This document shows positions 24,001 to 30,000 of a stretch of 64,000 bases of DNA, piece after piece. A program made the position numbers. Origin of the DNA: Escherichia coli (GTDB taxonomy: Bacteria; Pseudomonadota; Gammaproteobacteria; Enterobacterales; Enterobacteriaceae); the NCBI RefSeq assembly GCF_030013595.1, contig NZ_CP122768.1, one strand, 5' to 3'. The first letter of the stretch is position 1, and each line of letters opens with the position of its first letter.

Positions 24001-27000
24001 CATTCGCGAAACCAGTGCTGCTGATGTGCCGCTGGCGATTGACCATTTTCGCTATTTTGCCTCGTGTATTCGGGCGCAGGAAGGCGGTATTAGTGAAGTG
24101 GATAGCGAAACTGTGGCTTATCACTTCCACGAACCGTTAGGCGTGGTGGGGCAGATTATTCCGTGGAACTTCCCGCTGCTGATGGCGAGCTGGAAAATGG
24201 CTCCCGCGCTGGCGGCGGGCAACTGTGTGGTGCTGAAACCCGCACGTCTTACCCCGCTTTCTGTACTGCTGCTAATGGAAATCGTCGGTGATTTACTGCC
24301 GCCGGGCGTGGTGAACGTGGTTAACGGCGCTGGTGGGGAAATTGGCGAATATCTGGCGACCTCGAAACGCATCGCCAAAGTGGCGTTTACCGGCTCAACG
24401 GAAGTGGGTCAACAAATTATGCAATACGCCACGCAAAACATTATTCCGGTGACGCTGGAGCTGGGCGGCAAATCGCCAAATATCTTCTTTGCTGACGTGA
24501 TGGATGAAGAAGATGCCTTTTTTGATAAAGCGCTGGAAGGCTTTGCACTGTTTGCCTTTAACCAGGGCGAAGTTTGCACCTGTCCAAGCCGTGCTTTAGT
24601 GCAGGAGTCTATCTACGAACGCTTCATGGAACGCGCCATCCGCCGTGTTGAAAGTATTCGTAGCGGTAACCCGCTCGACAGCGTGACGCAAATGGGTGCG
24701 CAGGTATCTCACGGGCAACTGGAAACCATCCTCAATTACATTGATATCGGCAAAAAAGAGGGCGCAGACGTGCTCACCGGCGGGCGGCGCAAGCTGCTGG
24801 AAGGCGAACTGAAAGACGGCTACTACCTCGAACCGACTATTTTGTTTGGTCAGAACAATATGCGGGTGTTCCAGGAGGAGATATTTGGCCCGGTGCTGGC
24901 GGTGACCACCTTCAAAACGATGGAAGAAGCGCTGGAGCTGGCGAACGATACGCAATATGGCCTGGGCGCTGGCGTCTGGAGCCGCAACGGTAATCTGGCC
25001 TATAAGATGGGGCGCGGCATTCAGGCCGGGCGCGTGTGGACCAACTGTTATCACGCTTACCCGGCACATGCGGCGTTTGGTGGCTACAAACAATCAGGCA
25101 TTGGCCGCGAAACCCACAAAATGATGCTTGAGCATTACCAGCAAACCAAGTGCCTGCTGGTGAGCTACTCGGATAAACCGTTGGGGCTGTTCTGATGTGA
25201 AAGGCAGGCAACGTTAATAGTTGTCTGCCTTTGTTTTAGTTGTATAAAGCGGCAGTCGCTTTTAACTCATCGCTGAAAGAATAAATATCATCGAGAGATT
25301 CAATAGGATGGCGGGTTTCGTTTTTCTCTAAGTCAAATAAACCAATATATTTTTGATTTCGATTGAAATGTAATCTACAGAGTGGCTTTCGATTATTGTC
25401 ATCTACAAGTATACCAAAATAGCTTTTTGTATCTCTGTGGACTATTCGTGGTGCATCAAGCACTACGCGAACTATAGCTTTAACAATATGAAATCCTTCA
25501 AGTTCCTCCATAGTAGTAGCAATATCGGTTTCTTCTTTATTAATACATTCTACTTCTTCATTGTGTGAATTCGAATCAATTACAGATAATGACCCACCAC
25601 CTATTGCCGATTTCAATCTTTCGTTTATTTGAGAGTTAATATATTGATTGGCAGCTTTCTTTGTTAATTTTGCAAACGTATCTTTTACCTTTTGTGTTAA
25701 CATACCTTCATAAATTCTTGCTGCAAAGAATTTTACAAAATCCTCTTCAGGATTATTCATTTGTGCATGGAGAACTTTTTAAATTAAACTAACATATTTT
25801 AATTCACCTGCAGCATTAATTATTGATTCCAAATCAAATGCTGATTTAGTAAGCTTCTTTATCTCGGGAACAACTGTTTCATCTAAGTCAAGTAGATCTA
25901 TCTCAAGAAATGGTTTTTCATCCATTTTATTAGGTGCTTCTAAATCAGTAAAAAATTTATAAACTTGTTCATTGGTTAGAATAGATATTCTTGCATTTGT
26001 TACATGAAAGTATCGAAAAAGCTGTGAAGCATGATTTATATTTAGAGGATCGCCAATTTTTTTGCATTCAATGAGAATCTGAACCTCGCTATTTTTTAAG
26101 ATTGCATAGTCAATCTTTTCACCTTTCTTCGTTCCAATATCGCATACAAACTCTGGGATAACTTCGGTAGGATCAAAGACATCATAACCTAACACATTGT
26201 TAATAAACGGCATTACGAAAGCATTTTTGGTAGCTTCCTCCGTTTCAATGACTCCGGCTTGTTGTTTTATTTTTGCGGATAATGAATTCAGCTTATCTAT
26301 AAACTCCATAGACATTATAACTCCTTATATATATTTAATAAAAATGCGTTTTATAAAAATATAGAAAATATTTATATATTAACGCTTTATCATTGGTCAT
26401 AGTTAATGTATAACACACAAAAAATAATGTTTGCACATTGTAAATACAATGGTGAAACAAACTTGATATTTATCAAGAAAATAAAACAATGTCTTTTATT
26501 GGTTGTTTTAAACGTTCAATGAATACGAGTTGGAGCTATAGCAAGACTAGCTTCGATATCGCATGGATAATCTAATACAGATTTTTTAACACCTAATACT
26601 ATGAGTTATATGTAAATTGCGAGCATCCTCGCATCTTTTCAACAAGTTACTGCACACCGTTATTCTCCTTCCGAGCGGCATTCCTGAGTCAACTTTATCC
26701 CCCTGACGGCCCATATAAATCGCGCTATCGTGATTGTTATCGCTAATTGTGTGTGTATCGTGTGTATAATCATGGAAGGGCAGGGATGTGAAAAGTGCAG
26801 ACGTGATCGCCATCCTGAAGCAGCATGGCTGGGAACATATTCGAACCCGTGGCAGTCATCATCAGTTCCGCCACCCTGTTCATCCGGGTCTGGTGACGGT
26901 TCCGCACCCTAAAAAAGATATTAAGCCCGGTACGCTGGCGCAAATTGGGCGTCAGGCTGGTTTAACATTTTAAAATTTCAGGAGGCAATATGTTTTATCC

Positions 27001-30000
27001 CGCCTATATCCACAGTGATCCTGACGGCAGTGCCAGCGGTTTTTTCCCTGATGTTCCAGGCTGTTATTTTGCTGGTGATACGCTGGACAACGCTTTCCAG
27101 GATGCGCGAAGTGCACTTGTCGCGCACTTCGAAACCTTATGCGAGATGAATGAAGAGTTGCCGCTTCCAGGCTCTGTGGAAACACATCTGGTCCAGCGTG
27201 CGCAGGACTTTATTGGCGGGCAATGGTTGCTGGTGGATATCAATATGAATCAGTTCGAAGGTCGGGCTGAACGTATCAATATTACGATGCCAAAAAGATT
27301 ACTGAACAAGATTGATACCTACGTGCGCAATAACCCAGACTATGCCAACAGAAGTGCGTTTCTGGCGGAAGCTGCCCGGCGTGTATTGCCGGGCGTTTAA
27401 TCTCGCGTTTCGATGGTTGGCGGGCAACCGCACCGATATGTTGATACTGATAAGACGCGTTAAGCGTCGCATCATGCGCTGGTTTCCTCATTCACCCAGA
27501 TCCGCATTTCGCCTTCACCCCGGTTGGCCCAGCTAAACCACGGGATAAAGGTCAGGGTTTGCGGTTGGCGTTTGGCTGGCGCGCTGTCGTAATGCCACAG
27601 CGGTTGCTGCTCTGGATTGCTCTGTTCATACCGGTAACCCGGAGCCTGGATTAAGATCTTATGGCGGAACAATCCATTACCTTCAAATGTCGTAAATGGC
27701 GCATCGGCGGGCAGCCACAGGTTATGCAGTGACTCGCCGTTGTCGGCCTGTTCCAGGCAATACACCAGTGGGCCGCGCTGAATCGCCACTTTTCCGGCGA
27801 CGTGACGCACCAGCGGGTTACCGTAAACGCGGCGTACCGGCATCGGCAAAGTCAGATTCAGCATATCGCCCTCCTGCCATTCGCGGGTAATGTGCAAATA
27901 CCCTTTACGAATATCCTGCTCGACCTCTTCCCCATTCAATATGATCTGCGGCTGTGTGCACCAGTCCGGCAGACGTAAAGCCAGCGTATGACGCACCGGC
28001 TGGGGCGATTCAACCGCAATCGTCACCTGCTCCTGCCACGGATAGTTTCCGCTAACCCGCAGGCGCAGCGTGCCATTTTCTACCGGCACTTCCATGCTGT
28101 TTCCTGCGTAGATGTTGATATACAACGCATCTTCACGCGGCGTGTAGAGATAATGACCAATCGAGGTTAGCACGCGGGCGATATTTGGCGGACAACAAGC
28201 GCAACCAAACCAACGCTGGCGGATCGGCTTAACGTGATCGTAGATATGGTTGAATTTCAGCGATTTTGGATGTACTTCCAGCGGATTCACATAGAAGAAA
28301 TGTTTGCCATCCAGTGCCATGCCGCCGAGCACAGTGTTGTACAGTGCGCGCTCCATCACATCGGCATATTGACTGTCGCCTTCCATTTCCAGCATTCGTC
28401 GGGCGAACATCATCAGGCCGATGGAAGCACAACTTTCGGCGTAAACCGTGTCATTCGGCAGATCGTAATCGCTGCTGAACGCTTCGCCGCTGCTTTGTGA
28501 GCCAATGCCGCCGGTAATATATAACTGACGCTGGGCCATATTGTTCCACAGCCGCAGGCAATCCTGACGCTTGCTTTCATCGTGACTTAAACGCGCCAGA
28601 TGTGCGACGCCAGTCATCAGATATACAAAGCGTACTGCATGTCCGATGGCGGTTTGTTGCTGTGCGATGGGCAAATGCGCCTGGCTGTAGGCTTTATCTT
28701 TCACCATCCACGCCGGGCCGTAGGTGTGCCAGTGCGAGGTCTGCCCGCGCTTTTCATATTCCTGGTCGTAATAGTGCGGTTGCGCACCACGCTGTTCGAC
28801 AAAATAGTTCGTCAGCGCCAGGTAGCGCGGCTCTTCGGTCACTTCATACAGGCGCATTAGTGCCAGTTCAATTTCCGGGTGACCAGGATAACCGTGTAAC
28901 TTACTTTCACCTGGACCAAATACGCTGTCGATATGATCGGCCAGACGGCAAACCACTTCCAGCAAGCGCCGTTTTCCCGTGGCCTGGAAGAAGGCGACTC
29001 CGGCTTCAATCAGATGACCGGCGCAGTAAAGTTCATGACACTCCGCCAGATTGCTCCAGCGTTCTTCGGGCGCTTTTACCGTAAAGTAAGTATTGAGATA
29101 GCCATCTTCGCACTGGGCGGAAGCGACCAGTTCGATTACCTCGTCAGCGGTTTTTTCCAGTTCGGCATCCGGCTTCTGGCACAGCGACCAGGCTACCGCT
29201 TCCAGCCATTTGGCGACGTCGCTGTCCTGAAACACCATCCCGTAAAATTCACCGTCTTGCAGTCCTGCGGCAATGCGAAAGTTTTCAATCGCATGGCTGG
29301 GTTCCGCTTCTGGGATACGATCGTTCAAGGCGTCCCACTGATAAGGAATCACCACATCGCGGACCAGTTGTTGGTACTGACCGAGGAACGGATCGCTGAC
29401 CGTCAGTTTATGCAGATCGACTTCCGAAATGTTCATCTTGTGCTCCTTAAGGCTGTACATGACGCTGACGCAGGTCGCTAGCAATGCGTGACATCATAGG
29501 GTTATTGAGTTTGCAAAAGCGGATCGCCCCTGCCAGCAGCAGGTGGAATAGCGCAGGCAGTAATGTTTCCATCGCCGCGATCCCGCCAAGCGAACTGGTG
29601 GTCTGGTTTTCCACGCCTAGCTGGTAGGCGACAAAAATAAACAGCAGGCTGATGATCCCGGCGCTGGAGGCCCAGGCCAGCTTGATGAAAAACAGATTGA
29701 AGGCGAAGTTCATGCCGGAAGAACGTACGCGGGTTTTCCACTCGCCGTAGTCATCGGCAAAGGCCATCAATGAGAAGTGCAGTGGCAATGTGAAGCCAAG
29801 AATCACGCCATTACCGAGGATCACCGCCAGCCACAGCGTTTGATAAGCCGGGCCGGAGGGCAGGAACCACATCAACACCGCCAGCGCGGCGAGGAGCAGG
29901 TTGGTGTAGTAGTAAATTTTGACGGTATCGAAACGTCGCGTTAACGGGCTGACAATCACCGAGCCGATAATGGAGGCGAAGGTGACCATAGTGAAGAACA

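Follow-up and report, generated by a model that had tools for sequence, protein, structure and literature searches.

We analysed a 64,000-nt stretch of Escherichia coli DNA (the window), in which a small gene, hicA, is followed on the same strand by a second gene, hicB. The two genes and the signals around them are as follows.

26613-27430, + strand: hicAB cassette, common to all 505 E. coli carriers whether or not HSDR_N lies upstream
26723-26734, + strand: another conserved block farther upstream, CGCTAnnGTGAT; candidate second operator or activator half-site
26751-26770, + strand: promoter/operator block, tandem GTGTGTAT repeats with a TATAAT -10, candidate HicB operator
26774-26779, + strand: hicA Shine-Dalgarno, weak, GGAAGG, 8 nt before the GTG
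26788-26973, + strand: hicA, 61 aa, GTG start, HicA toxin, RefSeq WP_000833473.1
26980-26985, + strand: hicB Shine-Dalgarno, strong, AGGAGG, in the 16-bp spacer
26990-27400, + strand: hicB, 136 aa, ATG start, HicB antitoxin, RefSeq WP_000499744.1; N-terminal HicA-binding domain at about residues 1-90 and C-terminal ribbon-helix-helix (RHH) DNA-binding domain at about residues 93-136
27373-27395, + strand: terminator-like GC-rich hairpin overlapping the hicB end, found by terminator scan and folding

The ORF list and the sequence reproduce exactly what the initial annotation had described at 26788-27400, namely a 61-aa ORF with a GSHH motif, a 16-bp gap, and a 136-aa ORF. The hicA product begins MKSADVIAILKQHGWEHIRTRGSHHQF, its GSHH motif is formed by G22-S23-H24-H25, and the gap (26974-26989) has AGGAGG inside it. 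The assignment to a hicAB-type pair, for which the initial annotation had proposed a profile search as a check, was borne out by Pfam. HicA matched PF07927 HicA_toxin (1.9e-23, 82.7 bits, cut-off 27), with residues 4-59 covering profile positions 2-58 of 58, and HicB matched PF15919 HicB_lk_antitox (8e-36, 123.3 bits, cut-off 27), which its N-terminal half alone also matched at 1.1e-19. Scores this far over the gathering thresholds exclude chance ORFs. In NCBIfam, HicA had no family and HicB had only sub-threshold NikR (RHH) matches. RefSeq names hicA and hicB in every carrier genome inspected, and WP_000833473.1 is present in each of the three carrier annotations that were read; in literature searches, this accession turned up solely as a BLAST query. 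The pair is already known and annotated and is of a well-described type.

Among known systems, HicAB of Burkholderia pseudomallei (4C26, 6G26, 6G1N, and 6G1C) is the best match in both sequence and fold. The window HicA aligns gap-free to the HicA of PDB 4c26/6g26 (1e-16; about 53% identity over 59 residues), and its G22-S23-H24 falls on the same, shared positions of 4c26, which is an H24A mutant. All of the conserved B. pseudomallei HicA residues listed in PMC3969222 are kept (L10, G14, W15, G22, S23, H24, P39, P41, D44, G48, I53, and A57). Mutational evidence shows that toxicity of the B. pseudomallei protein needs Gly22 and His24 (PMC3969222). The HicB proteins are about 35% identical over their full length, including the C-terminal RHH, and hicA comes first in both systems. 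On the other hand, the B. pseudomallei pair differs in host and genomic setting; a review assigns it to a phage-derived island (PMC11594946).

An RHH at the HicB C-terminus, which had been read from the sequence alone, was supported by four kinds of evidence. HicB aligned over its full length to RHH-type HicBs (6G1N at 2.8e-25; 4P78/4P7D of Yersinia pestis HicA3-HicB3 at 1.6e-21), and its residues at about 93-136 gave weak matches to RHH_8, RHH_5, and NikR (E = 0.07-0.2). The AlphaFold2 model (pLDDT 88) contains an extended segment at 94-101 followed by helices at 102-114 and 121-135. Foldseek placed 6g26_A and 4p7d_A at the top, with 132-134 columns aligned (E-value of 2.3e-10 for the Y. pestis protein). 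For the partial RNase H-like N-terminal domain, the model superimposes on 6g1c and 4p78_A, which are structures of that domain, at an rmsd of 1.8-2.5 Å. It is vanishingly improbable that these ORFs arose by chance or were misannotated, an idea that only their small size would favor, and we set it aside given the Pfam margins of 56 bits for HicA and 96 bits for HicB, the full-length structure alignments, and conservation across genera with low dN.

The Y. pestis system also has the toxin gene first, although its HicA3 matches the window HicA much more weakly (1e-4), and in its operon 174 bp separate hicA from hicB and the operators are two 15-bp inverted repeats, in contrast to the 16 bp and the lack of inverted repeats here. 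The K-12 pair (hicA b4532 and hicB b1438; 6HPB) shares the superfamily and the gene order. Its HicB is homologous in the N-terminal domain (residues 1-66, E = 1.2e-5; 88 Foldseek columns against 6hpb_B) but ends in an HTH, the type that defines class 3 of Gerdes, whereas the window HicB ends in an RHH. Identity between the two pairs is low (19/53 aligned residues for HicA and 40/122 for HicB), and a DNA-level comparison of K-12 hicAB with the window pair returned no match. K-12 hicAB lies elsewhere, at 1,509,286-1,509,924 in MG1655 (1.51 Mb), and occurs in at least 4,253 of 5,426 genomes compared to 505 for the window pair. The view that this locus is distinct from K-12 hicAB therefore holds in location, HicB type, and sequence.

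Class 4 hicAB loci as defined by Gerdes in 2024 are bicistronic hicA-hicB operons with a C-terminal RHH in HicB and a short spacer (PMC10865869), an architecture that the window pair matches. We conclude that the pair is very probably a chromosomal type II toxin-antitoxin of the hicAB kind with an RHH-type HicB, and within the Gerdes scheme it is simply a class 4 member without substantive difference. HicA(T)B of the IncI2 plasmid p45 (PMC11878559) is built in a similar way, with hicA first, a HicB that combines PF15919 with an RHH, a spacer that is likewise short (24 bp, compared to 16 bp here), and an RBS for each gene, but it resides on a plasmid and has a role in plasmid competition, whereas the window pair is chromosomal.

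By homology, HicA would be a small RNase that acts independently of the ribosome, has a dsRBD-like fold, and depends on His24 and Gly22 for its activity. The partial RNase H-like N-terminal domain of HicB would bind and block HicA, thereby neutralizing it, while the C-terminal RHH would dimerize and repress the promoter of its own operon. The most likely HicB binding site would be the tandem GTGTGTAT repeats over the TATAAT -10 at 26751-26770. The copies, at 26751-26758 and 26760-26767, form a direct repeat, and the second of them is overlapped by a perfect TATAAT at 26765-26770. Five genera share the motif GTGTGTAT-NN-TGTGTATAAT without variation. In the alignment, the whole 26751-26770 block is unchanged in E. 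coli, Enterobacter, Pseudescherichia, and Trabulsiella and largely so in Serratia, while the flanks have diverged; it is also identical in three E. coli strains. From this pattern, we consider it likely that the motif represents the promoter together with a HicB operator. Owing to the poor -35, a generic consensus scan did not report a sigma-70 promoter immediately before hicA.

In systems with an RHH-type HicB, the operator lies over the -10 (PMC11594946), as is the case for the main operator of Y. pestis. The B. pseudomallei operator is a single palindrome over the -10, whereas the -10 here is covered by direct repeats. A repeat finder and a custom script found direct repeats only and no inverted-repeat operator upstream of hicA, and this region lacks a palindrome of the sort that serves as operator in Y. 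pestis and B. pseudomallei. The five-genus footprint thus presents a candidate operator made of direct, not inverted, repeats. Farther upstream, the CGCTAnnGTGAT block lies about 41 bp before the transcription start that the TATAAT predicts near 26777, and its invariant columns in the cross-genus alignment are C56, G57, T59, A60, G63, T64, and T67. This block is a candidate second operator or activator half-site, as judged from its conservation.

Translation signals differ between the two genes. All five genera retain the GTG start of hicA; the GAAGG of its Shine-Dalgarno is found in E. coli, Enterobacter, and Pseudescherichia only, while the CAGGAG of the hicB Shine-Dalgarno is conserved in four genera. 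Initiation at hicA (GTG with GGAAGG) should be weak compared to hicB (ATG with AGGAGG), which would favor a surplus of antitoxin. The hairpin at 27373-27395 is the probable end of the operon, although a terminator role is not proven because its T tract is weak. A second hairpin, at 26927-26960, is followed by UUUAACAUUUU and is only partly conserved in orthologues. It resembles the GC-rich hairpin and UUU that precede the hicB RBS in p45, and we considered an internal hicA terminator of the IncI2-plasmid kind. However, the terminator scan did not call this hairpin, and the internal terminator was left unsupported because the structure is no stabler than shuffled sequence (folding energy z = -0.45). 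An E-value scan of 25000-27700 against Rfam gave only a chance-level match, within the HSDR_N nuclease gene.

A survey of genomic distribution, which the initial annotation had proposed, located the pair in 505 of 5,426 complete E. coli genomes (about 9%), always on the chromosome and between aldB and a GH127-MFS-AraC cluster. The left limit of the shared cassette was set by 173-bp matches and alignment, and the right limit was set by alignment to the K-12 scar. This scar is a remnant of the hicB 3' end just downstream of aldB in K-12 and about 3,800 other complete genomes. GH127 and AraC remnants, from the neighboring genes, persist in these genomes too, and with these three remnants in K-12, its arrangement is the derived, deleted state. 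Orthologues that are 65-80% identical occupy the aldB-linked site in Enterobacter, Pseudescherichia, and Dryocola; in Trabulsiella, the pair adjoins selB in the same neighborhood. The order hicA-hicB is conserved in five genera, and the GC content of the pair, 50-52%, is host-like.

The allele was not found on plasmids, where true relatives are at most 58% identical, nor in phages, where relatives are at most 43% identical. In the plasmid set, the two matches of at least 99% identity fall in multi-megabase records and represent chromosomes that had been filed as plasmids. For HicBs from E. coli plasmids about 60 kb in size, the alignment is limited to the C-terminal 56 residues, at 44% identity. 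The pair had been proposed to be horizontally acquired; as a recent event, this is not supported, given the K-12 scar, the aldB-linked orthologues in other genera, the low non-synonymous divergence, and the host-like GC. Instead, the pair has long resided at the aldB-proximal site in Enterobacteriaceae and has been lost in the K-12-type majority of E. coli. An ancestral chromosomal toxin-antitoxin that was lost with a scar in the reference strain warns against equating "absent from K-12" with "horizontally acquired."

Loss from most E. coli also bears on whether the module still works as a toxin-antitoxin. In the cryptic-clade Escherichia inspected (L016/L017), hicA is disrupted by an insertion that creates GTG-TAA, while hicB is intact. 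This disruption and the deletion in most E. coli indicate that the locus is dispensable and that the toxin may be weakly expressed, and such widespread deletion shows that the locus does not prevent its own loss. Along with the GTG start and weak Shine-Dalgarno of hicA, these observations would fit an attenuated or decaying module, in which HicA is scarcely toxic or expressed and HicB is kept mainly as a small DNA-binding regulator. We regard this as highly improbable for the window pair, as its hicA is undisrupted and retains all conserved and catalytic residues, the same HicA accession occurs in all three annotated carriers noted above, and dN is low compared to saturated dS across genera (0.15-0.19 against Enterobacter and Pseudescherichia). 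Since synonymous sites are saturated, dN/dS is mostly not computable, and we give only dN and one ratio, about 0.06 for hicA where computable. An intact toxin-antitoxin under conservation thus remains our preferred reading of the pair, which matters little beyond correct annotation, as the public annotation already names it.

An AT-rich HSDR_N-domain nuclease gene recurs beside hicAB, on either side, in at least four enterobacterial lineages. Orthologues of this gene adjoin the pair in E. coli, cryptic Escherichia, a Dryocola-like contig, Enterobacter, and Trabulsiella, with varying gene order, and are 76-79% identical at the amino acid level where measured (Enterobacter and Trabulsiella). The HSDR_N allele of NZ_CM149870.1 is intact. 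We weighed whether hicAB and the adjacent nuclease form one functionally coupled anti-phage mini-island, in which HicAB would either supply abortive infection or regulate the nuclease. More distant hicAB relatives occur as prophage cargo (moron) genes, in one case next to a GAPS4-type nuclease gene, and validated defence genes include one for a HicA-domain fusion protein (PMC13092281). The gene validated there by DefensePredictor encodes a 472-aa fusion protein and is not the window pair. For canonical hicAB, phage-defence and island roles are bioinformatic proposals only in the literature (PMC10865869 and PMC11594946).

Several observations make such coupling very unlikely. The nuclease gene is absent beside hicAB in about 317 of the 505 E. 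coli carriers and in Pseudescherichia, one Dryocola (L022), and Serratia, and the copy in the window carries a nonsense codon. Moreover, all of the observed adjacency falls within one syntenic neighborhood and may reflect shared ancestry only. In PADLOC-DB v2, HicA and HicB had no match at E <= 0.01 and the nuclease had only a weak type IIG match; no canonical hicAB model was matched there, so the null result for the pair says little about function. With the HSDR_N protein as query, near-identical Enterobacter orthologues filled the homologue search, which is uninformative about distant contexts. The recurring nuclease neighbor nonetheless offers a cheap hypothesis on canonical HicAB in phage defence which, if true, would have a canonical RHH-type HicAB acting in defence alongside a solitary PD-(D/E)XK nuclease.

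We found that the positions of both ORFs and the GSHH motif that the initial annotation had read in the 61-aa HicA-type ORF agree exactly with the sequence, the translated HicA carrying R21-G22-S23-H24-H25-Q26-F27 at residues 21-27.

Features of the hicAB region in the window
25236-26315, minus strand: HSDR_N-domain "type I restriction endonuclease" gene, 32% GC, between aldB and hicA
26723-26734: CGCTAnnGTGAT block (five-genus alignment)
26751-26770: GTGTGTAT-NN-TGTGTATAAT (five-genus alignment)
26788-26973, plus strand: hicA, 61-aa ORF, GTG start
Between 26973 and 26990: hicA-hicB spacer, 16 bp, containing AGGAGG
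26990-27400, plus strand: hicB, 136-aa ORF, ATG start
27373-27395: terminator-like hairpin overlapping the end of hicB (terminator scan)

Identification of the pair as hicAB was correct. HicA matched Pfam HicA_toxin (PF07927; E = 1.9e-23, 82.7 bits) and HicB matched HicB_lk_antitox (PF15919; E = 8e-36, 123.3 bits), spanning all 58 and all 123 profile positions, respectively, and each exceeding the threshold of 27 bits. Among solved structures, the best HicA matches were to Burkholderia pseudomallei HicA (4c26 and 6g26; ~1e-16, gap-free), compared to 1e-4 for Yersinia pestis HicA3. Gly22 and His24 are needed for the toxicity of B. pseudomallei HicA, and all 12 residues listed as conserved in that study (L10, G14, W15, G22, S23, H24, P39, P41, D44, G48, I53, and A57; PMC3969222) are kept in the gap-free alignment. 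HicB aligned over its full length with B. pseudomallei HicB (6g1n; 2.8e-25) and Y. pestis HicB3 (4p78/4p7d; 1.6e-21), while the match to K-12 HicB (6hpb) was limited to residues 1-66. An AlphaFold2 model of HicB (mean pLDDT 88, built on 39 homologues) has a beta-beta-beta-alpha...beta N-terminal domain leading through an extended segment into helices 102-114 and 121-135, and its top Foldseek matches were 6g26_A and 4p7d_A over 132-134 columns, with K-12 HicB covering just 88. Since YpHicB3 and BpsHicB carry a ribbon-helix-helix (RHH) domain and EcHicB a helix-turn-helix (PMC11594946), the full-length matches and the two modeled helices bear out the RHH C-terminus proposed for HicB. The full-length match to RHH-type HicBs, the model, and the Pfam assignments place the pair among the class 4 hicAB operons of the Gerdes scheme (PMC10865869). 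It is a typical representative of a known class and was already annotated (RefSeq HicA-family toxin WP_000833473.1 and HicB-family antitoxin WP_000499744.1); WP_000833473.1 served as the E. coli HicA query in one paper, and literature searches found no experimental work on the pair.

Of the 5,426 complete E. coli genomes, 505 have the complete pair, invariably on the chromosome and at a single site. Its neighbor on one side is aldB; the other side has genes for a GH127 glycoside hydrolase, an MFS transporter, and an AraC regulator as well as sgbE/araD. The GC content of the pair is host-like (50-52%). As the initial annotation had stated, the K-12-type hicAB lies elsewhere and differs in sequence: it is a distinct module at 1.51 Mb, and at least 4,253 of these genomes carry it. 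No plasmid in the plasmid search carried the window allele, plasmid relatives being at most 58% identical, and a phage search returned relatives at most 43% identical.

In most other matching genomes, K-12 included, the match is confined to the 3' end of hicB (27317-27365). In K-12 HMS174, this scar (8001-8102 of locus L002, equivalent to window 27317-27429) consists of the last ~85 bp of hicB, from which 12 bp have been deleted internally, and of the intergenic DNA downstream. It lies ~150 bp downstream of aldB, directly after aldB and a REP-like element, and is found in ~3,800 complete genomes. The K-12 order then runs from the hicB stop region through intergenic DNA to yiaW-yiaV-yiaU-yiaT, a 190-bp GH127 fragment, and an AraC remnant abutting sgbE. 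Since remnants of hicB, GH127, and AraC all persist, the K-12 arrangement derives from one in which all three were intact: hicAB was lost in K-12 and is no gain of the window strain relative to K-12. In K-12, yiaW-yiaV (L002 8386-9028) replace the GH127-MFS-AraC interior; they are paralogous to yibI-yibH (window 16596-17274; 72-80% nucleotide identity), ~10 kb upstream in the window.

Orthologues occupy the same neighborhood in other genera, with Serratia as the exception.

Gene order around hicAB orthologues
Enterobacter: aldB-yiaU-yiaT-hicAB-HSDR_N-GH127-MFS-AraC-sgbE
Pseudescherichia vulneris: aldB-hicAB
Dryocola: aldB-hicAB-yiaU-yiaT
Trabulsiella: selB-hicAB-HSDR_N-GH127
Serratia: hicAB beside putA

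Given the scar and these orthologues, the earlier description of the pair as horizontally acquired should give way to that of a module ancestral at the aldB site that K-12 has lost. The E. coli proteins share 74-75% (HicA) and 77-78% (HicB) identity with those of Enterobacter or Pseudescherichia (dN = 0.15-0.19, synonymous sites saturated); the AldB comparison gave 95%. Shimwellia blattae and Yersinia enterocolitica have more distant relatives (55-58% HicB identity) in lambdoid prophages, where the pair sits between the genes for holin and endolysin and the Q antiterminator region (L018 4779-5414; L020 and L021 4731-5414), so the wider clade is mobile although the window branch is a long-term chromosomal resident. 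A PDDEXK_GAPS4-domain gene lies near the prophage pair in L020. In cryptic-clade Escherichia (L016 and L017, ~5791-5981), a short insertion makes GTG-TAA after codon 38 of hicA, leaving an intact hicB as an orphan antitoxin. Loss of the toxin with survival of the antitoxin is the usual decay route of a dispensable toxin-antitoxin module.

Three E. coli strains share the same 90 bp directly before hicA but differ in the DNA beyond it, and the 26751-26770 element and the shorter CGCTAnnGTGAT block are the sole invariant upstream elements across five genera. The former is a tandem direct repeat with 9-bp spacing overlapping a perfect TATAAT. By analogy with YpHicB3 and BpsHicB, whose main operators also overlap the -10 (PMC11594946), we infer that it is a candidate -10 plus HicB operator, although those operators are inverted rather than direct repeats. 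The -35 is poor, which explains why a consensus promoter scan made no call there. The CGCTAnnGTGAT block precedes the inferred transcription start by ~41 bp; its resemblance to a CRP or CRP-S half-site is only weak, and we do not claim it as one. The K-12 hicAB has a CRP-Sxy-dependent promoter. The hicA start is GTG in all five genera with a weak Shine-Dalgarno sequence in E. coli, whereas hicB has ATG and AGGAGG, so translation should be biased toward the antitoxin. At the 3' end of hicA, a GC-rich hairpin (26927-26960) and the UUUAACAUUUU after it, directly ahead of the hicB ribosome-binding site, recall with their UUU the internal terminator of IncI2 HicA(T)B (PMC11878559), but the hairpin does not exceed shuffled sequence in stability (z = -0.45) and is only partially conserved. 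A 75-aa antisense ORF over the hicA promoter and start (26586-26813, minus strand), called as a gene in some public assemblies (L016/L017 5589-5816), has no Pfam match and is probably spurious.

By homology, HicA would act as an RNase toxin, and HicB would neutralize it and repress the operon. Regarding the suggested stabilization of the region, most E. coli have lost the locus by deletion. A part in phage defense has been proposed for canonical hicAB on bioinformatic grounds only (PMC10865869), and a HicAB review asks for experimental validation (PMC11594946); the sole validated HicA-domain defense gene encodes a 472-aa fusion protein (PMC13092281), and PADLOC gave no match to the window pair.

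The HSDR_N gene lies between aldB and hicA in 188 of the 505 carriers, including the window, where an in-frame TAA (25779-25781) breaks it; the otherwise 99.96% identical NZ_CM149870.1, whose 359-aa gene is intact, has T in place of the A at window position 25781. Orthologues in other genomes (L005 6412-7488; L014 6420-7499; L017 4233-5312; L023 52-1131) share 76-79% amino acid identity where measured. The gene is upstream of hicA in E. coli, cryptic Escherichia, and a Dryocola-like contig and between hicB and GH127 in Enterobacter and Trabulsiella; the adjacency is thus recurrent with variable order, and many hicAB carriers do without it. Relative to NZ_CM149870.1, the window also has a 1-bp deletion at 12341, in the last few codons of mtlR, which could be a true frameshift or a sequencing error.
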